From Patescibacteria group bacterium (GTDB taxonomy: Bacteria > Patescibacteriota > Patescibacteriia > XYB2-FULL-38-15), in NCBI GenBank assembly GCA_041653675.1, contig JBAZEY010000005.1:10164-74163 (forward strand): DNA of 64,000 bases, given 5' to 3'. Position 1 is the first letter of the stretch, and each line of letters starts with the position of its first letter. Below are positions 1,900-46,869 of this stretch, one piece after another. The notes beneath the pieces are model-generated. The model was not told where the DNA came from and searched no databases. It saw only the letters and a program-made list of their open reading frames with translations. Both the position numbers and the translations under genes were made by a program.

Positions 1900-2358
1900 G
1901 TGAAGAGGATTCGTAGGGAAACCGCCCGCGTCGCCCGTCAGATGAGCGACGACATGGACGAACCGAGCATCCGGACCTGCTACCTAACTCTCTGGCCGCC
2001 CATTCCCATTTTCCCGGACTGCGAAGAGTGCCTCCAGGAAGCGCATATGTGCGGCGAATGCTGCGTGGGGTACCCGGTCGTCCATCGGGTTGATCTCAAC
2101 GACGACTACGACGCCACGATCGACGAGCCGTGCGAGTGCTACCCGGGCGTCCAGGCCTGCGTCTCGACGCCGTTGATGCCGCTCCCGCTCGACGAGATCG
2201 ACGGCGATGGCGATGGCTTCCTGGGCTGCGAGGAGTGCAACCCGGGGACGTGCACCTTCGAGTGCGGCACGGGCGTCCAGGCCCTCTCGGCCAGCGACGC
2301 CGACTGGATCTTGGACAAACACGAGCCGTACGAGATCGACGACGAATTCCCCAGCTGA
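1900..2358 (+). CDS. Hypothetical acidic Cys-rich protein (GC island 1), ~152 aa
   Basis: AGGAGG RBS 5 nt upstream of a GTG start. Strongly acidic with multiple CxxC/CEEC/CEC motifs. Coding GC is far above the flanking AT-rich DNA. I recognise no domain. Confidence 0.5.
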   Translation: MKRIRRETARVARQMSDDMDEPSIRTCYLTLWPPIPIFPDCEECLQEAHMCGECCVGYPVVHRVDLNDDYDATIDEPCECYPGVQACVSTPLMPLPLDEIDGDGDGFLGCEECNPGTCTFECGTGVQALSASDADWILDKHEPYEIDDEFPS

Positions 2359-10954: not shown

Positions 10955-11785
10955 CTACTCGCCTTCCGCGATCTCCACGAGCCTGCGCTCGAAGGATCGC
11001 CGCTTCGGCTCCCGTTCGAGGTAACCGCACACGACCTTCTTGACGTTGAACATGTCGGGCAAATCGCCGACAAACCCGAAGAGCCCGCGGAGTCTTTCGA
11101 GCTGCACCTGCAGGGCGCGAGCGTAAACCAAGCCGTGCGAACGGCCCATGGTGAGAATCGTTGCCTCCGAGAAGCCGGGCCCCTTTTCCGGCATCTGCCT
11201 GGCCTCTGCGAGAATCAGGAGCGCCGCCCTTTCGGGATCCCCCGCCGACCCCCTCGGTGCGTAGCAGAAATTGATTGTGGCCGCACACTGGGCGTCGAAC
11301 CAATTTCCCGCCCGTGCTGCTTCCAGACAGTCCTCGCGTACTTGGGTCGCCCACTTCCCGAAAAACGTCTGCCGGTTCACCTTGGAGGTGTCGATCACCC
11401 ATTGCCAAGCGAAGACGGTCGGCGAGTTTGGGATGTCATAGACATGAATCAGGGCGTCACCCAACTCAGCCTTCATCGCCTCGAGGCGCGAATACGGCGA
11501 CAATCTCCAATAGTCCACCTTCTCGCAGCCTGCGATCTTGGCCTGGATTGCCGCCTCTTCCGGTGTAGCCCGCCGAAGCTTGGCCGACAGGTGGCCGTTT
11601 CCGGCGTCATGGCTCTCCACTTCCACTACAGGAAACCCCAGAGCTTTTCCCATGGCTTGGAGAACCTTGTGTTGATCGGCCGTGTACCATTCGAACCACG
11701 CGGCGGAGATCTCCTCTCCGACCGCACGGATCTCCCCGGAAATGTATTCACCTAGCGCGAACTTCACTTCACGATTTTCCGCCAT
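10955..11785 (-). CDS. Hypothetical protein (GC island 2), 276 aa
   Basis: AGGAGG RBS 8 nt upstream of the ATG (MAENREVKFALGEY...). ~60+% GC. The region is open in several frames, and this is the longest ORF with an RBS. No known domain recognised. Confidence 0.5.
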   Translation of the reverse strand: MAENREVKFALGEYISGEIRAVGEEISAAWFEWYTADQHKVLQAMGKALGFPVVEVESHDAGNGHLSAKLRRATPEEAAIQAKIAGCEKVDYWRLSPYSRLEAMKAELGDALIHVYDIPNSPTVFAWQWVIDTSKVNRQTFFGKWATQVREDCLEAARAGNWFDAQCAATINFCYAPRGSAGDPERAALLILAEARQMPEKGPGFSEATILTMGRSHGLVYARALQVQLERLRGLFGFVGDLPDMFNVKKVVCGYLEREPKRRSFERRLVEIAEGE

Positions 11786-34885: not shown

Positions 34886-35302
34886 TTATTTAAACTTCGT
34901 ACTGTGGTCAATCGCCTCATTAACCAATTTATCCGCTTCTTTATTTTTTTCCCGCGGCACATGAGTAAAAGTCGCTTTTTTAAAACCCATGCTCAAATTC
35001 CAAACCTGAACAAAAAGCGCCGCTAAATCTTTATCCTTAACTTTATATTCGCGATTTATTTGTTTCACAACCAGCTCGCTATCCAGAAAAAAATTTAATT
35101 CCTCTGCGCCAATTTTTTTTACCTCTTCAAGCGCCAAAATCACGGCTTTGTACTCTGCTTGATTATTTGTCGCCTCGCCAATATATTTTTTGTGCTGCCC
35201 AACCAACTCGTTGCCATTCCAAATCACAACGCCAATTCCCGCCGGTCCGGGATTTCCCCGCGCCCCACCATCGGTAAAAATTTGAAGTTTGTTATAAATC
35301 AT
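34886..35302 (-). CDS. rnhA: Ribonuclease HI
   Basis: MIYNKLQIFTDGGARGNPGPAGIGVV...EYKAVILALEE... is an RNase H fold. The track ORF extends to a TTG at 35332. An alternative duplicated start exists 170 bp upstream. Confidence 0.85.
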   Translation of the reverse strand: MIYNKLQIFTDGGARGNPGPAGIGVVIWNGNELVGQHKKYIGEATNNQAEYKAVILALEEVKKIGAEELNFFLDSELVVKQINREYKVKDKDLAALFVQVWNLSMGFKKATFTHVPREKNKEADKLVNEAIDHSTKFK

Positions 35303-35460
35303 AATGTTAAATAAAATTAACGCCCGGACCAAGGAAAGGGGTCGGGAAAACGCAGTTTTCCCGTAGCGGAAATATTAAAACCGAGGGGTTTTAAAGAGGC
35401 GTGAAGCGCCGATGGTCTGGGATTTCCCCGCGCCCCACCATCGGTAAAAATTTGAAGTTT
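35244..35460. repeat. 42-47-bp direct repeat (35244-35290 and 35414-35460), each containing codons ~4-18 of rnhA, flanking repeat element copy B
   Basis: AAACTTCAAATTTTTACCGATGGTGGGGCGCGGGGAAATCCC(A/G)GACC occurs twice, 170 bp apart. The upstream copy follows its own ATG (MAYQKLQIFTDGGARGNP...). Confidence 0.6.
35300..35415. repeat. Structured repeat element, copy B (reverse complement matches 3503-3606)
   Basis: Reverse-complement core is TTAAAACCCcTCGGTTTTAATATTTCCGCtACGGGAAAACTgcGTTTTCCCGACCCCTTTCC. Stems are conserved and loops differ. Flank hairpin GGCG/CGCC vs GACGC/GCGTC in copy A. Confidence 0.6.
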
Positions 35461-35473
35461 TTGATATGCCATA

Positions 35474-37198
35474 TTATTCACTCATTTTTAAATCAATAAT
35501 TTTCATCTGCAACTCCCTATTTCCATTCCACTCATTGACATCTACTTCAAAAACTACGTCAACTTTATCTCCCACTTTTAATTTCTGGCACCACTCACCA
35601 AAACAAAAACCGATAAATTTTTTCCGAACACCATTCCCCTGACTTAAACTTATTCTTAAATGATTTCCGTTTGTGCCCACACTCTCAAAACTTTCCACCG
35701 CAAAACCTCTCCCCAAATACTTTGGCCGCTCATTTGCCCTACCAAACGGAGCGAATTTTTCTAAAAGTTCAAACAACTCCCAATTTATTTTTTCCAAACG
35801 CACTTCTGCGTCAATATTCAACGTCCGTACAAGTTCCATGCCGGCTAATTTTTTTTCCGCGATTTTTTTTAATATTTTTTCAAATTTTTTTAAATCTTTT
35901 TTATTCTTTAAAGTAAACCCGCAGGCTCCGGCGTGTCCGCCATAATGGGATAAAAGTTCTCTTGTCTCGTGGAGGCTTTCGGTAATATCAAATTCAGGAA
36001 TACTTCTGCCTGAACCCATAATATCTTCTTCCCTTTCGGTCATGATAAAAGTCGGCCGCCAAAAATTTTCGGCAATTTTCCCAGCAACTAAACCCACAAT
36101 CCCGACTGGCCATCCTTCTCCCTTGGCAAATAAAATTTTCTGTTCACCAATGTCTTCTCCAATTTGCGCCTTTGCCTCGGCCATAACCCGCTCGCTCAAA
36201 CTCTGCCGTCCTTCATTAGTCTTATTTAGAGAACTAACCAATTCATCAACTTCATTTGCGTCATCCGTTTTTAAAAGTTCGTAAGCTTGATTCGCGTGGT
36301 CAATTCTGCCAGCGGCATTCAGGCGCGGCCCGATTTGAAAAGCTACATTCTTTGCGTCAAGATCTTTATTTTTATTTAATCCCAAGGACTCAATTAACTT
36401 TTTTAAACCAATCCGTTGTGTTTTATTCAAAACTAAAAGACCGTATTTTACCAAAGTGCGATTCTCTCCCAAAAGCGGCATAATATCAGTAATCGTTGCG
36501 ATTGCTACTAAATCCAACAGCCATTTTTCAAATCCTTCGGGATCAATTTTAAAATCCAAAGTTTTAAATTTGGGGCTTCGAAGAATTGCTTGCACCAATT
36601 TAAAAGCCACTCCCGCCCCAGCTAATTCGCGAAATGGGTATTTTTCGCGAGCAAGATGCGGATCAATAATCGCGAAAGCAGCTTCTGGTAAATTTGGCGG
36701 CTCGGCGTGATGGTCGGTAATAATCACATCCATACCAAGTTCCGTGGCTCTTTTTATTTCCAGCCGGTTACTAATTCCGCAGTCCGTTGTGATTATTAAA
36801 TTTACTCCATTTTTCCCAAGTTCTTCCACGGTTTGCATATTAAGTCCATAACCTTCAAGCTCGCGATGAGGCAAATAAACCTGGGCGTCAGCACCCATTG
36901 CCGAAAGAGTAGCTACCATAACCAACGCCGAACAAACTCCATCGGCGTCGTAATCACCATGAACTGTAATTTTTTCCTTTTTCTCTATGGCTAGAAAAAC
37001 CCGATCCACTGCTTTTTCCATATCTAAAAATAAAAACGGATCGTGAATATCCTGGCTATAATCGGGATATAAAAATTCATCAATCTTTTCCTGAGTCTTA
37101 ACACCCCGGTTAGCAAGCAATTGCAAAATTACCGGATCAATCTCCGGAAATTTATTTTTAAATTCTTCGCTGATTGTTTCGGCTACCCGCCACTTCAT
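35474..37198 (-). CDS. recJ: Single-stranded-DNA-specific exonuclease RecJ
   Basis: DHH motifs (...TVHGDYDADGVCS..., ...ITTDCGIS..., ...IITDHH...) and a DHHA1 C-terminal domain. 574 aa. Confidence 0.9.
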   Translation of the reverse strand: MKWRVAETISEEFKNKFPEIDPVILQLLANRGVKTQEKIDEFLYPDYSQDIHDPFLFLDMEKAVDRVFLAIEKKEKITVHGDYDADGVCSALVMVATLSAMGADAQVYLPHRELEGYGLNMQTVEELGKNGVNLIITTDCGISNRLEIKRATELGMDVIITDHHAEPPNLPEAAFAIIDPHLAREKYPFRELAGAGVAFKLVQAILRSPKFKTLDFKIDPEGFEKWLLDLVAIATITDIMPLLGENRTLVKYGLLVLNKTQRIGLKKLIESLGLNKNKDLDAKNVAFQIGPRLNAAGRIDHANQAYELLKTDDANEVDELVSSLNKTNEGRQSLSERVMAEAKAQIGEDIGEQKILFAKGEGWPVGIVGLVAGKIAENFWRPTFIMTEREEDIMGSGRSIPEFDITESLHETRELLSHYGGHAGACGFTLKNKKDLKKFEKILKKIAEKKLAGMELVRTLNIDAEVRLEKINWELFELLEKFAPFGRANERPKYLGRGFAVESFESVGTNGNHLRISLSQGNGVRKKFIGFCFGEWCQKLKVGDKVDVVFEVDVNEWNGNRELQMKIIDLKMSE

Positions 37199-37335
37199 AA
37201 AAATATTATTCTACTAAAACATTGGCGCTACCGTCCAAATAACCATGGATAAAACAATCATGGCGCTTAAAATTATCCAAACGATTTTTAATAAATTTCT
37301 TTTTTTCATAAATAAATTAAAAAATAAATATTGGA

Positions 37336-37353: not shown

Positions 37354-37380
37354 TAAAACAAAAACACCGCCAGAAGGCGG
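37354..37380 (-). terminator. Intrinsic terminator CCGCC-AGAA-GGCGG followed by TGTTTTTGTTTT on the minus strand, terminating the island 3 transcript
   Basis: Read directly. Confidence 0.6.
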
Positions 37381-37589
37381 AGTTCTTGTGTGGGATTTAA
37401 AGATAGTCAAAAATGACTAAAATTTTGTTTTTGTTATTAATCCCTTTTCTCTAAACCATTTCGCTGATTTAGAGGAAAGGGACTTGGAGCAAGATCCTGT
37501 CACGCCTCGATTTCTCGATTTGTGAACAGTGTCTGCATTGCACAGACTACTTGCTCCAAGAAAATGTTGGAAGGAACGAACTGGCAGAA

Positions 37590-38522
37590 CTAGCGCTTCT
37601 TGCCGCCGCCGTTCGAGCCCTTCTGGCCGCCCTTGTGGCGCTTGCCGGCACCGAAGCGCGTGTTGCCCACGGCCAGGGCGAGTTTCCGGCGACGGTCCCA
37701 ACGCCGCGCTTCCCGCTCGGCGCGGCTGAGCTGCGGCTTCACCTCGGTCGCGACCGCCGGCTTCTTCGGCTCGGGCTGCTTCGGGGGCGAAACGACCTGG
37801 TCCGCGTCCTTCTTGTTCCGCCGCTCGATCTCCATCTGGGCGCCGCGGTAGTCGAAGAGTTGGATGCTCCTCAACGCCCCGGCCTTGATCAGGACGGCGT
37901 ACTGCTCGCGACAGATCCCGGCGACCGCGCGCTTGCCGTCCTTGTCCTTCACGATCGCGTAGCGCGTTACGAACTCGTCGTCGCGGTGGAGTAGGCAGTT
38001 CGGCACGCCGCAAACCACCCTACCCTTCTCGTCCCGGAGCGCCTGGAGCGGCTCGGCCGTGCCGACCACGACCGCCTTCCAGTAGTCCACGGCGGCGGCC
38101 TCGGCGCGGATCGCGGCGTTCCTCACGCCGACGATCCCGTAGAGCGCCCCGATCTTCATCAGGTGGCGGCGCTCTTCGGGCGACATCCGCCCCTCGGCGC
38201 AGGGGTTGCAGATCGGCTCGAAGCCCCAGAGCTTCAGACCGTCCCGCTCGATCTGGACGAGGAGAGCGAGCTTGATCTTGCCGACGGAGTTCCCGTCGGC
38301 GTGCCCGCACTTCGAGCAGACCCGCTTCGGCTTCGGCGCTTCGGTCACGACGATCGGGTCGTCGACCGGCTTCTCCGGCTCGACCGCGACCGGCTCCGCC
38401 ACCTCCGTCGTCATGGACGGCATGGCGGCGAGGACCATCTCTTCGTACTCTTCATCGGTCAGGTTCCCGAGGCCCGCCGACACCGGCACCACGATTCCCA
38501 TCGTCGTCTCCGCCATGTTCAT
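37590..38522 (-). CDS. Hypothetical zinc-finger protein with basic C-terminal tail (GC island 3), 310 aa
   Basis: AAGGAGA RBS 1-2 nt before the ATG (MNMAETTMG...). CSKCGH...CNPC and CGVPNC motifs. C-terminal ...RRWDRRRKLALAVGNTRFGAGKRHKGGQKGSNGGGKKR. ~65-70% GC by eye. Confidence 0.5.
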   Translation of the reverse strand: MNMAETTMGIVVPVSAGLGNLTDEEYEEMVLAAMPSMTTEVAEPVAVEPEKPVDDPIVVTEAPKPKRVCSKCGHADGNSVGKIKLALLVQIERDGLKLWGFEPICNPCAEGRMSPEERRHLMKIGALYGIVGVRNAAIRAEAAAVDYWKAVVVGTAEPLQALRDEKGRVVCGVPNCLLHRDDEFVTRYAIVKDKDGKRAVAGICREQYAVLIKAGALRSIQLFDYRGAQMEIERRNKKDADQVVSPPKQPEPKKPAVATEVKPQLSRAEREARRWDRRRKLALAVGNTRFGAGKRHKGGQKGSNGGGKKR

Positions 38523-38547
38523 TCTCCTTATTCTCTTGGCAGTTACG

Positions 38548-38572
38548 AAAAATCAGACCGGAAACCGATCTG
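38548..38572 (-). terminator. Attenuator-like hairpin CAGATCGG-TTT-CCGGTCTG followed by T5, ~25 nt upstream of the island 3 RBS
   Basis: Read directly on the minus strand. An intrinsic-terminator shape placed inside the 5' leader. Confidence 0.4.
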
Positions 38573-38853
38573 ACCTTGGCTTCCCGAAACTGTCGGGATG
38601 TGCCAGAGGAATTTGGAGGCGAGTTGGCCTGTTCTGATAGCACAGAACTGGCCGGTGGCATTTTGGTCAATTTACTTTTAGTAATCCAAGGCGGACAACC
38701 GAAAGTTAATTGAACCTCATGCCGGATCCCGCGGTCACCAATTAATGGTCCGCGAAGATTTTCCTCCTCCAAGTTTCTCTGGCACTATTTTGTAAGGAAC
38801 TAGCACGACAAGCACTTTTTTTAATCTTTAAGCCTATTTCAGCTTAACAAATA

Positions 38854-38882
38854 AGTATAACATATATTCCGTATTTTGTCAA
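38854..38882 (-). promoter_or_regulatory. Promoter TTGACA-N17-TATACT with TG extension, driving the island 3 gene through a ~320-nt leader
   Basis: The minus strand reads CCCCTTGACAaaatacggaatatatgtTATACTtatttg. Confidence 0.45.
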
Positions 38883-38956
38883 GGGGTTTTGACACTATTT
38901 CTTAAATAATTCAATATTTTGCTTTATTTTAGCCAAAATAAATTGTCATAAATAAA

Positions 38957-38986
38957 CAAAAAATCACCACTTTAAGGTGATTTTTC
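38957..38986. terminator. Bidirectional terminator ATCACC-ACTTTA-GGTGAT flanked by A6 and T5 (lepA terminator)
   Basis: Read directly, 20 nt downstream of the lepA stop. Confidence 0.6.
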
Positions 38987-39005: not shown

Positions 39006-40790
39006 CTATTTCTTCAAAACTGCTAAAAATGCCGCTGGAGGAATATCAACTTTGCCCAAAGCCTTCATTTTTTTCTTGCCTTTTTTCTGTTTTTCCAAAA
39101 GTTTATTTTTTCTAGTCACGTCTCCCCCGTAAAGTTTGGCTGTCACATCTTTTTTCATGGCCGGCAGGTGTTCTGAAGCAATAATTTTTCCGCCGAGCGC
39201 CGCCTGAATTTTAACTTCAAACATTTGCCGCGGTAAAACTTTTTTTAATGACGAAACAATCCTCCGCCCGACATCCTGCGCCGTGTCGCGATAAACAATT
39301 GTGGCCAAGGCTTCAACCGGCTCGCTCGCGACCAAAATATCCATCTTCAAAACATCGGCTTCCCTATATCCAAAAAATTCATAGTTCAACGAAGCATAAC
39401 CAGAACTCACACTTTTTAACTTATCATAAAAATCCACAAGAATCGCCGAGAGCGGAATTTCATAATGTAAAATTACGCGGTCAGCGTCGAGATATTCCGT
39501 ATTAAAATATATTCCTCTTTTTTCCTGAACCATCTGCATAATACCGCCGATGTAGTTACTCGGAGATACTACATCAATTTTAATCCATGGTTCTTCAATC
39601 ATTTTTATGCGCGAGAGATCTGGCAATTCCGACGGACTTTTAATAATCGCTACTTCATTTTTTTGATTTGTAATCCGGTAAGCCACGGAAGGAACCGTGA
39701 CAATAACATCGAGATTGTGTTCCCGCCGCAATCGTTCTTCTACAATTTCAAGATGGAGTAATCCCAAAAGCCCGCAACGAAAACCAAACCCGAGCGCCTT
39801 GGATTGCTCTGTTTCAAAAGTGAGCGAGGCGTCGTTTAATTTTAATTTTAAAATCGCATCGCGGAGTTTTGGAAAATCGTCCCCCTCTTTGCAAAAAATT
39901 CCCGCAAAAACCATTGGCTTAACTTCTTTATATCCAGGCAAGCTTCGCACCATAGATTCTGAATTCTTGCTTGTTACCGTATCGCCAACGCGGCATTTTT
40001 CAATTTCCTTAAGACCGGTAACAATATAACCAATTTCTCCAGCCAGTAATTTTTCCGCCGTCTGAAATTTTGGTTTAAAATATCCAACCTCCAGAACTTC
40101 GCTTTCAGTTTTTGTCGCCATCAAGAACATTTTATCACCGCGACGCACTTCACCGTCAACAACTCTAACGTAAGCCACCACCCCTTTATAATCATCGTAT
40201 TTGGAATCAAAAATAAGAGCGCGAAGAGGTTCGTCTATTTTTCCGCGCGGCGAAGGGACTTTTTCTACTACCGCTTCCAAAATTTCCGGCACGCCGACAC
40301 CGGTTTTCCCTGAGGCAAGAATTACTTCTTCTTTTTTGCAACCAACAAGAGCTACAATTTCCTGAACCGTTTTTTCCACTTCCGCATTTTTTAAATCAAC
40401 TTTATTAACAACTGGAATAATCGTAAGATTTTGTTCTAATGCTAAATATAAATTTCCTAAAGTTTGCGCCTGGACTCCCTGAGTCGCGTCGACCAAAAGA
40501 AGCGCGCCTTCAACGGCGGCGAGCGACCGCGAAACTTCATAATTAAAATCAACGTGGCCGGGAGTATCAATTAAATTCAAAATAAAATCTTTATAATTCA
40601 TTCTGACCGGCTGTAATTTTATCGTAATCCCCCGCTCCCGTTCCAAATCCATCATATCAAGCAGTTGATCTTTCATTTCTCTTTTTGAAACCGTTCCGGT
40701 AAATTCCAAAAGCCTATCGGCGAGCGTCGACTTTCCGTGGTCAATGTGAGCGATGATACAAAAATTTCTGATTTTATTTTGAATTTCCAT
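39006..40790 (-). CDS. lepA: Elongation factor 4
   Basis: MEIQNKIRNFCIIAHIDHGKSTLADRLLEFTG... GTPase plus LepA C-terminal domain. 594 aa. Confidence 0.9.
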   Translation of the reverse strand: MEIQNKIRNFCIIAHIDHGKSTLADRLLEFTGTVSKREMKDQLLDMMDLERERGITIKLQPVRMNYKDFILNLIDTPGHVDFNYEVSRSLAAVEGALLLVDATQGVQAQTLGNLYLALEQNLTIIPVVNKVDLKNAEVEKTVQEIVALVGCKKEEVILASGKTGVGVPEILEAVVEKVPSPRGKIDEPLRALIFDSKYDDYKGVVAYVRVVDGEVRRGDKMFLMATKTESEVLEVGYFKPKFQTAEKLLAGEIGYIVTGLKEIEKCRVGDTVTSKNSESMVRSLPGYKEVKPMVFAGIFCKEGDDFPKLRDAILKLKLNDASLTFETEQSKALGFGFRCGLLGLLHLEIVEERLRREHNLDVIVTVPSVAYRITNQKNEVAIIKSPSELPDLSRIKMIEEPWIKIDVVSPSNYIGGIMQMVQEKRGIYFNTEYLDADRVILHYEIPLSAILVDFYDKLKSVSSGYASLNYEFFGYREADVLKMDILVASEPVEALATIVYRDTAQDVGRRIVSSLKKVLPRQMFEVKIQAALGGKIIASEHLPAMKKDVTAKLYGGDVTRKNKLLEKQKKGKKKMKALGKVDIPPAAFLAVLKK

Positions 40791-45787: not shown

Positions 45788-45837
45788 TTGACAAGTTACT
45801 AAATATATTCTATTATTAAAAGTCCACAATTTTGTGG
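45788..45837 (+). promoter_or_regulatory. Island 4 cassette 1 promoter TTGACA-N17-TATTAT plus operator-like palindrome CCACAA-tt-TTGTGG (45824-45837)
   Basis: TTGACAagttactaaatatattcTATTATtaaaagtCCACAATTTTGTGG read directly. Followed by AGGAGA RBS and an ATG at 45862. Confidence 0.55.
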
Positions 45838-45861
45838 GATGGGATAGAGGAGAAAGAGTCC

Positions 45862-46194
45862 ATGAAACTCAAGCCGACCGTCTTAGAATTGCAGGTGTTG
45901 GAGCTGACTGAGTACATGAGACTCAAGCCGACCAACATCACCTTGGGCGCGGGTTGCGTGATCGGTTTCTACCGGAACGAACGTTGCATCGTGGTTATGC
46001 CCGAATCGGGCAGCGGAGTTCGGATCGACTGGCCGGGCACAAACGACGACAAGCGGATCGCGCCTCCGTGCATCAAGACGGAGAAGGATTTTCTCGACGT
46101 CGTCAATCTCTTCGCCGCGATGCTCGGTCTCCAGGCCGTCCCCGACAGCTTCGAGCGGCCGTACGGGATCGCCCTTCGCCTCGTCAAGCGGTAG
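45862..46194 (+). CDS. Hypothetical protein (GC island 4, cassette 1), ~110 aa, with duplicated N-terminal MKLKPT/MRLKPT
   Basis: RBS GAGGAGAaagagtccATG. 21-nt repeat ATGAAACTCAAGCCGACC / ATGAGACTCAAGCCGACC in frame 54 nt apart. GC-rich. No domain recognised. Confidence 0.45.
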   Translation: MKLKPTVLELQVLELTEYMRLKPTNITLGAGCVIGFYRNERCIVVMPESGSGVRIDWPGTNDDKRIAPPCIKTEKDFLDVVNLFAAMLGLQAVPDSFERPYGIALRLVKR

Positions 46195-46281: not shown

Positions 46282-46331
46282 TTGACAATTTGCTAAATAT
46301 CTGATATTATTCAATGTCACAATTTCGTGAC
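46282..46331 (+). promoter_or_regulatory. Island 4 cassette 2 promoter TTGACA-N17-TATTAT plus operator-like palindrome GTCAC-aatttc-GTGAC (46316-46331)
   Basis: TTGACAatttgctaaatatctgaTATTATtcaatGTCACAATTTCGTGAC read directly. Near-identical in layout to 45788-45837. Confidence 0.55.
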
Positions 46332-46869
46332 TAGAAAGAAGGAGGCCGTGCGCTACTTGTTCATTCCGAGTTGCGAAGTGGCGATGAAGAATGTGCTGAC
46401 TGGCACGACTACCGAAAAGCGCCTCATCCGCGGCCTCGATCTTTGGCGGGCAGGCGGCTACGACGCCATCATCGTGACGGGCGGCATCTATTTGCCGCCA
46501 GAACAACAGACGATCCCCTCGGGAATCTTGATGGAATACTGGCTCATCGAGCACGGTGTGCCAGAGAAGGCCATCATCTGCGAAGATCACTCACGCGATA
46601 CCTTCGAAAACATTTCTGGCGCCCTGACACTCATCGCCGACGACCCCGCGCCAGAATTCACGGTCGTGACCCACTGGCAGCACGCGCTGCGGTTCTGGGT
46701 AACCTTCCACCTCGCGCACCGGCGCAAGATTCGCCTCGTGCCGATGTGGTACTGGACCGATCTCAAGGGTTTTGTGTTGGAGTGGGCATTCCTGCTCGTA
46801 CATCTTCTCGATCGAAACGGAACCGGCCGGATCGCCACTCGGAACCGCGACAGTCACAACAAGTCGTAA
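46327..46869 (+). CDS. DUF218 (YdcF/ElyC/SanA-like) domain protein (GC island 4, cassette 2). True start probably downstream of the AAGGAGG at 46339-46345 (TTG 46356 or ATG 46384).
   Basis: DUF218 hallmarks ...YDAIIVTGGI... and ...CEDHSRDTFEN... GC-rich. The coordinates given are the track ORF. Confidence 0.5.
   Translation: MTRKKEAVRYLFIPSCEVAMKNVLTGTTTEKRLIRGLDLWRAGGYDAIIVTGGIYLPPEQQTIPSGILMEYWLIEHGVPEKAIICEDHSRDTFENISGALTLIADDPAPEFTVVTHWQHALRFWVTFHLAHRRKIRLVPMWYWTDLKGFVLEWAFLLVHLLDRNGTGRIATRNRDSHNKS

Follow-up and report, generated by a model that had tools for sequence, protein, structure and literature searches.

A covarying leader RNA and a structured 3' untranslated region flank a GC-rich, hypervariable zinc-ribbon gene in one lineage of Patescibacteria

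Analysis of a 64,000-nucleotide stretch of a Patescibacteria genome (candidate phyla radiation, CPR; 42% G+C), referred to below as the window, indicated that a zinc-ribbon gene on the minus strand (37590-38522) is enclosed by two structured RNAs, a leader of about 300 nucleotides (nt) upstream of the open reading frame (ORF) and a trailer in its 3' untranslated region (UTR). Both RNAs are real and under selection, and with the gene between them they form a single-copy, clade-specific transcription unit of one Patescibacteria lineage. An attenuator-type leader combined with a structured 3' UTR, autogenous control by the encoded protein and a GC-rich, exchanged cassette was judged the best explanation overall, and we put it forward tentatively.

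Results

Conservation and position of the leader and trailer

Folding of the leader gave -127.4 kcal/mol against -86.7±5.2 kcal/mol for dinucleotide shuffles (z -7.8), and folding of the trailer gave -84.8 kcal/mol against -52.3±4.7 kcal/mol (z -6.9). In both RNAs the number of pairs with compensatory changes exceeded that of the shuffles and of the slid controls, as follows:

Leader core: 77 pairs, 97.6% of cells paired, 20 compensatory pairs; shuffles 8.1±2.0 (0/500 reach the observed number); slid controls 0-3
Trailer: 66 pairs, 97.4% of cells paired, 9 compensatory pairs; shuffles 3.2±1.3 (0/500 reach the observed number); slid controls 0-2

Invariant G-U pairs in the leader and the trailer were compatible with the ORF strand only. 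The four-fold sites of the flanking genes lepA and recJ were only 41-57% identical between genomes, while identity was 73-93% for the leader (86-93% for full-length copies other than L001 and L017) and 82-94% for the trailer; identities so far above the four-fold sites argue that the RNAs are under selection. The folded leader and the structured 3' UTR proposed in a preliminary description of this DNA are therefore both borne out, with covariation in each. A search of Rfam 15, which the same description had named as a check, assigned neither RNA to a family, whether the whole window was scanned at the gathering threshold or the region including 38548-38848 at E<=10. No tRNA or tmRNA was detected at the locus by ARAGORN.

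The genes on either side of the unit are lepA (39006-40790) and recJ (35474-37198), on the minus strand like the unit itself, and the order lepA – leader – ORF – trailer – 31-amino-acid (aa) ORF – recJ was shared by 13 orthologous loci. The same slot, murJ-lepA-unit-recJ-rnhA, was occupied in every homologue with usable context, distant ones included. The upstream gene lepA has a terminator of its own at 38958-38986 (consensus scan). Searches by nhmmer with the leader and trailer alignments found each of them once per locus, always beside the ORF, and no further copies in the window. A leader or trailer without the ORF was not seen among these loci, which were collected through the protein and so make a biased test; no RNA-based search of genomes or metagenomes was made. 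Literature searches turned up no account of the leader or trailer RNA, nor any of islands of GC-rich genes in Patescibacteria.

Leader RNA, attenuator hairpin and translation start

The leader region, from the promoter to the start codon, comprised the following elements:

38854..38882, minus strand: sigma-70-type promoter, TTGACA, 17-nt spacer with TG, TATACT (11/12 in the consensus scan)
38826..38848, minus strand: 5' hairpin GTTAAGCT-GAAATA-GGCTTAA, at or near the transcript 5' end (RNAalifold columns 10-16/23-29)
38786..38825, minus strand: linker with the invariant AGTGCTTGTCGTG at 38804-38816 (alignment A2)
38600..38785, minus strand: leader core, a three-way junction (P2, P3, P4) closed by a long-range helix of about 20 bp (RNAfold, alignments)
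38728-38757, minus strand: P2, CGCGGACC..GGTGACCGCG
38657-38725, minus strand: P3
38626-38653, minus strand: P4, GGCCAGTTCTG..CAGAACAGGCC
38583..38597, minus strand: P5, short hairpin CCCGA-CAGTT-TCGGG (read directly from alignments A2 and A5)
38548..38577, minus strand: intrinsic-terminator-shaped hairpin GGTCAGATCGG-TTT-CCGGTCTGA followed by T5, the candidate attenuator (RNAfold, alignments)
38538..38547, minus strand: CGTAACTGCC, after the U-run (alignment A5)
38516..38529, minus strand: Shine-Dalgarno (SD) sequence AAGGAGA (38523-38529) and conserved start ATG 38516

The promoter and all the leader hairpins pointed out in the preliminary description were present on the minus strand. The promoter hexamers were conserved in the orthologues while the sequence of the spacer varied. 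The pairs of the 5' hairpin were invariant in 12 sequences, and the site following AGTGCTTGTCGTG tolerated insertions of 60-110 nt in six loci (L001, L004, L013, L017, L019 and L023). The closing helix (helix 1) is formed by arms at 38761-38785 and 38600-38621, and 16 of its 20 pairs never varied; most of the covariation in the leader sat in P2, P3 and P4, each of which had 4-9 pairs with compensatory changes. P5 was variable in sequence with the hairpin kept (CTCCG/CGGAG, CCGCA/TGCGG and CCCGG/CCGGG in other loci), and it was misaligned by MAFFT, so that it is missing from the RNAalifold consensus. The leader of L001 resembled that of L023, though the two ORFs share only 30% identity. Tandem Repeats Finder detected no tandem repeat array in the leader. 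A TTG-start upstream ORF (38452-38772) reported earlier does exist in the window; neither its frame nor its length was kept in the orthologues, and a coding role for it was rejected.

The terminator-shaped hairpin in front of AAGGAGA (helix 8; 12 pairs, 98.7% of cells paired) was found, with a U-run of 4-5, in 13/13 leaders, and the most diverged locus, L023, keeps it by compensatory change (CAGGCGG/CCGCCTG). The CGTAACTGCC sequence was near-identical in 12/13 leaders, with single-base variants in L008, L013 and L017, and was absent from L023. The leader terminator lies about 25-45 nt upstream of the SD, the spacer being short and variable, and the consensus scan of the minus strand between them (38523-38548) revealed no promoter-like site. 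The conserved start (MAE...) is ATG 38516, six bases past the SD; the ATG at 38522, given as the start in the preliminary description, is in frame and abuts the SD with zero spacing.

Zinc-ribbon protein

The gene that follows the leader is described by one entry:

37590..38522, minus strand: ORF of 310 aa (308 aa from ATG 38516), CSKCGH...CNPC with a basic tail

The protein, which had been recognised earlier as a zinc-finger protein with a basic tail, begins with a disordered, acidic N-terminus, continues with two CxxC...CxxC zinc-ribbon-plus-helix modules and finishes in an Arg/Lys/Gly-rich tail. Each module is made up of CxxC, a beta-hairpin, CxxC and a long helix, and three modules were present in L017 and L023. 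Residues C69, C72, C105 and C108 (CxxCGH..CxxC) were invariant. The AlphaFold2 (AF2) model had strands at 85-93 and 96-104 and a helix from 106 (predicted local distance difference test score, pLDDT, 83-92), which place it with the zinc-ribbon/treble-clef knuckles; the model was confident only at residues 61-150 (pLDDT 71-92) and its mean pLDDT was 65. Its zinc ribbons and basic tail mark it as a putative nucleic-acid-binding protein.

A search of 5.8 billion clustered proteins gave 11 homologues of the 310-aa protein, and an exhaustive profile search of 1.84 billion proteins gave a family of 13 representatives. The exact protein is annotated in the database as 'MAG: hypothetical protein WC348_02585 [Patescibacteria group bacterium]'.

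Trailer RNA

Downstream of the stop codon, the trailer, a structured 3' UTR of about 200 nt, comprised the following elements:

37483..37560, minus strand: T1, outer 11-bp helix CTTGGAGCAAG/CTTGCTCCAAG (37550-37560, 37483-37493) around two inner hairpins
37442..37481, minus strand: T2, long hairpin CCCTTTCCTCTAAATCAGC-GAAA-TGGTTTAGAGAAAAGGG, which holds the 14-bp repeat
37404..37419, minus strand: T3, small hairpin TAGTCA-TTTT-TGACTA, invariant
37355..37389, minus strand: unit terminator CCGCC-TTCT-GGCGG with a T-run, lengthened by A/U pairs

Both inverted repeats of the preliminary description (11 bp and 14 bp) are thus present, as is its downstream terminator. The inner hairpins of T1, at 37531-37547 and 37498-37528 (GTCTG..CAGAC inner hairpin included), had 3 and 4 compensatory pairs, and the outer helix covaried in the distant loci L021, L023 and L024. 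T2 (helix 5) had 19 pairs with 97.5% of cells paired, while T3 (helix 6) never varied and is neutral on pairing. The further suggestion that the repeats could be terminal inverted repeats of a mobile cassette was rejected: leader and trailer occurred once per locus at a syntenic site, and the complementarity between the 5' and 3' ends (I6) was not maintained, since 3' variants were found without compensation.

The distant homologues in L021 (GC-poor) and L024 (GC-intermediate) are also followed by a trailer like T1/T2, in which C-G has changed to A-U in the outer helix. No leader was detectable in L021; for L024 the sequence ahead of the gene comprises only 16 bases, too few to judge a leader. 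Since the trailer-like T1/T2 follows distant homologues and no leader was detected in L021, the trailer appears to be the older of the protein family's two RNA partners, and the leader to have been added later. A UUGGAG/CUCCAA core was common to the leader helix and T1, a hint at a common binding partner of the two RNAs.

Several variations of the trailer were restricted to particular lineages. Large insertions were located in the hairpin loops of T2 in L004 (about 250 nt; L004:5968-6217) and of T1 in L015. Past the first terminator, L003:5982-6295, L015:1592-1927 and L017:6276-6590 have one more G+C-rich hairpin and a second copy of the terminator module. Arrays of a short GCAGACTG/CAGACTG motif were present beside the GC-poor homologue P0019 (L021:1-90, 780-860 and about 1640-1710) and also inside its trailer hairpin loop; they may be a small repetitive element or an array of binding sites for a protein.

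Base composition and hypervariability of the ORF

Two properties of the ORF had been missed in the preliminary description, its G+C content at third codon positions (GC3) and its variability. The ORF had a G+C content of 0.685 and a GC3 of 0.94, while the GC3 of lepA, recJ and murJ was 0.35-0.40. The shift in G+C started a few bases from the start codon and stopped at the stop codon. The orthologous ORFs had GC3 values of 0.91-0.93, and the four-fold sites of the ORF were 90-95% G+C even at 57-62% identity, with C<->G the commonest single class of difference. Because the GC3 is held in diverged orthologues, the composition is a maintained equilibrium and not an unameliorated import. The locus had been labelled an 'island', and the comparison of orthologues argues that the GC3 of about 0.94 is actively maintained and is not a mark of recent transfer.

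The first and second codon positions were raised as well (GC1 0.68 and GC2 0.44, against about 0.52 and 0.33), which points to a pressure on all codon positions rather than to pure codon-usage selection. RNA structure within the ORF was rejected as the cause of the high G+C, z being only -1.3. Distant family members in the same slot formed a gradient of GC3, from 0.33 in L021 through 0.58 in L024 to 0.91 in L023.

Identity of the ORF protein between loci was 26-80%, while that of LepA was 86-93% and that of RecJ 79-91%. The loci closest to the window by RecJ, L012 and L013 (89-91% identity), were only 39% identical to it in the ORF protein, while L001, more distant by RecJ (83%), was 66% identical. 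Allele classes that are incongruent with the flanking genes are most simply read as repeated allelic exchange by recombination across conserved flanks, and these identities point to a hypervariable cassette swapped between strains. GC-biased gene conversion during such cassette exchange is the cause that we favour for the high GC3, speculatively: acting only where alleles differ, it would cover the sharp borders of the ORF, the rise in G+C at every codon position and the rapid evolution of the protein. Work by Lassalle et al. 2015 (PLoS Genet) reportedly described GC-biased gene conversion in recombining bacterial genes, raised GC3 going with recombination. The present ORF is alike in its raised GC3, GC1 and GC2 and in its fast protein evolution, whereas its GC3 of 0.94 against 0.38 and its sharpness at the level of a single ORF far exceed the effects reported there, and recombination is deduced here from incongruent identities only.

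Other GC-rich genes in the window

Four more GC3-rich ORFs were found in the window, with GC3 of 0.74-0.86 where ordinary genes of this genome have about 0.35-0.40: 1900-2358 (+), 10955-11785 (-), 45832-46194 (+) and 46327-46869 (+), each apparently a separate unit. The ORFs 1900-2358 and 10955-11785 have AT-rich flanks and a terminator each, and 1900-2358 also has its own TTGACA/TATAAT promoter. A Pfam domain was found in one of the four, DUF218 in 46327-46869. These four and the zinc-ribbon gene seem to form a class of orphan genes with high G+C.

The 276-aa island protein encoded by 10955-11785 belongs to a six-member family. Its farthest homologue (42% identity) lies on a contig of 63% G+C (L025:1-4304, JGI Ga0598251_0001786) with small overlapping ORFs and weak PHROG hits, which may be part of a GC-rich mobile element or phage gene pool. 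IMG/VR yielded no relative. A GC-rich donor was rejected for the DUF218 gene 46327-46869, as every source-named homologue came from Parcubacteria, Patescibacteria or an unclassified bacterium. The homologue on L025 and the DUF218 homologues thus differ in the origin that they imply.

Neighbouring genes

A 31-aa hydrophobic mini-ORF, MKKRNLLKIVWIILSAMIVLSMVIWTVAPMF, is located at 37214-37309 (-) between the unit terminator and recJ and has its own -10 element, TGTGTTATAAT. Every orthologous locus with enough sequence to cover this position contained it, and the copy in the distant L021 had diverged. One lineage carries an inserted DUF559/MTES_1575 gene (Vsr-like endonuclease fold) between the trailer and recJ (L017:6790-7125 and L018:3999-4334). 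A 54-aa ORF at 35317-35481 (-) repeats the N-terminus (YQKLQIFTDGGARGNP...) of the adjacent RNase H gene (34886-35332), and resembles either a partly duplicated rnhA or the 5' end of that gene after a frameshift.

Loci L003 and L006 come from a complete chromosome, OZ246416.1 (886,192 bp), which bears the title 'uncultured Gammaproteobacteria bacterium'. This label seems wrong, to judge from the size and gene order of the chromosome and from its near-identity with the Patescibacteria loci.

Discussion

The explanation that we prefer supposes that a strong promoter would drive a folded leader RNA of about 300 nt ending in an intrinsic terminator ahead of the SD of the zinc-ribbon gene. Since no promoter belonging to the ORF alone could be recognised and the lepA terminator lies upstream, transcription of the ORF must pass the leader terminator; the ORF would be expressed only by read-through, which would make the leader a transcription attenuator. 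Most of the product would probably be stable leader RNA, and full-length mRNA would make up a minority. A protein is a likelier effector than a metabolite: the closing helix is too long and too invariant for a ligand-gated P1, a strong terminator is likewise not typical of ligand-gated riboswitches, the apparently older trailer shares the UUGGAG/CUCCAA helix, and the gene that accompanies the RNA is an orphan limited to one clade. Our best guess is that the effector is plausibly the basic zinc-ribbon product, which would bind its own 5' and 3' UTRs in autogenous control.

A known parallel is the leader of the Escherichia coli S10 operon, in which autogenous transcription attenuation is controlled by the ribosomal protein L4. 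The two systems are alike in a long structured 5' leader, a terminator hairpin and a gene for a basic nucleic-acid-binding protein, putative in the present case, and in control by the product, which is here a proposal. They differ in that the protein is non-ribosomal and belongs to no family, and that the present unit has a conserved structured 3' UTR and a leader of about 300 nt with a 20-bp closing helix.

Several results weigh against the attenuator explanation. The consensus terminator scan missed the leader hairpin that RNAfold and the alignments show, probably as its stem extends into the T-run. No covarying alternative (antiterminator) pairing was found, the candidate being a pairing of only 6 bp (UCUGGC/GUCAGA) that was spotted by inspection, and sequestration of the SD by an upstream UUCCUUA was rejected, being no better than shuffles in most orthologues. 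All sequences belong to one narrow clade, so that much of the RNA is invariant and lies beyond the covariation test. The protein had no match in Pfam, PHROGs, PADLOC or NCBIfam; a profile search of the PDB gave LIM and bL32 zinc-knuckle matches at E~0.2 only, and Foldseek against the PDB and BFVD gave none at E<=0.001. The helix shared by leader and trailer is 6 bp long and could be a coincidence. The transcription start site, the efficiency of termination and the stability of the RNA are predictions from the nucleotide sequence, and binding of the protein to RNA is purely what we infer. Finally, we know of no bacterial precedent for GC-biased conversion this strong at a single gene.

Among the other explanations, one with a limited but appreciable chance is that the leader, and perhaps the trailer, is mainly a stable stand-alone small RNA (sRNA) or ribonucleoprotein scaffold acting in trans, the ORF being expressed by leakage through the terminator. 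The strong promoter, the stable terminator hairpin and the 20-bp closing helix would suit such an RNA, as would a conservation of the leader above what pairing needs (16/20 pairs of helix 1 never vary) and a trailer family that seems to predate the leader, but the RNA lies directly upstream of the ORF in 13/13 loci with a spacer of 25-45 nt, has no Rfam match to a housekeeping RNA, and was not seen as an ORF-less copy, though in loci found through the protein and so with bias. The order of elements is also that of type III toxin-antitoxin systems (ToxIN-like), in which a promoter, a non-coding RNA, an intrinsic terminator and a protein gene follow one another and the terminator sets the RNA:protein ratio. 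That the unit is an RNA-protein conflict module, built like such a system or like a defence or host-interaction system, with an abundant structured RNA made from the promoter, the terminator setting the same ratio and the protein under diversifying selection, we consider improbable. The order promoter, RNA, terminator, ORF is joined on its side by a hypervariable protein with allele classes incongruent with the flanks and by a tiny clade-restricted family (13 representatives among 1.84 billion). The leader is nevertheless devoid of tandem repeats, the protein shows no recognisable nuclease motif, no PADLOC, Pfam or PHROG match and no likeness to ToxN, AbiQ or CptN (Pfam, PADLOC, NCBIfam, PDB), and the unit keeps a fixed, syntenic place in the chromosome, unlike a typical defence island.

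The preliminary description had left the choice between a riboswitch and an attenuation leader; the attenuator layout stands, with covariation in 13 loci, while a metabolite-sensing riboswitch with a terminator expression platform now seems distinctly improbable, more so than a conflict module. Like the riboswitch and attenuator leaders among the cis-regulatory families of Rfam, the unit has a covarying multi-helix fold just upstream of a terminator hairpin, a U-run and the SD. It differs from them in matching no Rfam family at E<=10, and no mutually exclusive antiterminator was found beyond the 6-bp candidate; its very long, near-invariant closing helix of 20 bp would form with or without a ligand, and its partner is an orphan zinc-ribbon gene of one narrow clade, not a metabolic or transport gene. 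Least probable of all, with hardly any chance, is an island of foreign DNA acquired recently, or a mobile cassette with inverted repeats at its ends. The sharp jump in G+C (0.69 against 0.42), the presence of inverted repeats and the distant homologue of a different GC-rich island gene in a phage-like contig of 63% G+C would agree with it; the single copy in the same slot of every genome, distant ones too, the lack of a transposase or integrase, flanks that are host-like in composition and better conserved than neutral sites, a GC3 at equilibrium with no decay and inverted repeats that turn out to be local hairpins, with 5'/3' complementarity not maintained, do not. HEARO or omega RNA of IscB and the bridge RNA of IS110 are ORF-associated structured RNAs in the 5' UTRs of mobile-element proteins, and the leader is alike in being a structured RNA of about 300 nt in the 5' UTR of a small, putatively nucleic-acid-binding protein. 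The present unit, in contrast, has no RuvC, HNH or recombinase domain and no element ends, and is single-copy and syntenic. A viral origin was also rejected, as neither the leader motif nor a relative of the protein was found in IMG/VR.

In kind, then, the attenuator explanation describes an attenuator-type cis element, a new and narrowly distributed leader and trailer around a hypervariable gene, and the compositional anomaly is the more surprising part. A bolder proposal, about as doubtful as the stand-alone sRNA, is that this is an undescribed kind of locus in which paired structured RNAs both regulate the cassette and act as homology arms for its exchange, and in which a locus-specific process holds the GC3 at about 94%. 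Working at the resolution of one gene in a genome of 42% G+C, it might consist in an extreme form of GC-biased gene conversion or in selection for a distinct codon or RNase-resistance regime. The four other GC3-rich orphan ORFs in the window suggest a genome-wide class in the lineage.

To our knowledge almost no regulatory RNAs have been described from the candidate phyla radiation, to which the unit adds a well-supported structured RNA of about 300 nt with a conserved 3' partner, not in Rfam. That a syntenic, vertically placed gene keeps a GC3 of about 0.94 despite neutral turnover in its neighbours also means that reading a GC island as recent horizontal transfer is the wrong default here. 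Some force must be acting on this single ORF, be it biased conversion tied to the exchange of cassettes or selection of an unusual kind on its codons or mRNA. If the same is general for the other GC3-rich orphan genes of the lineage, the locus would provide a testable case of how recombination and selection may shape composition gene by gene in tiny symbiont genomes.

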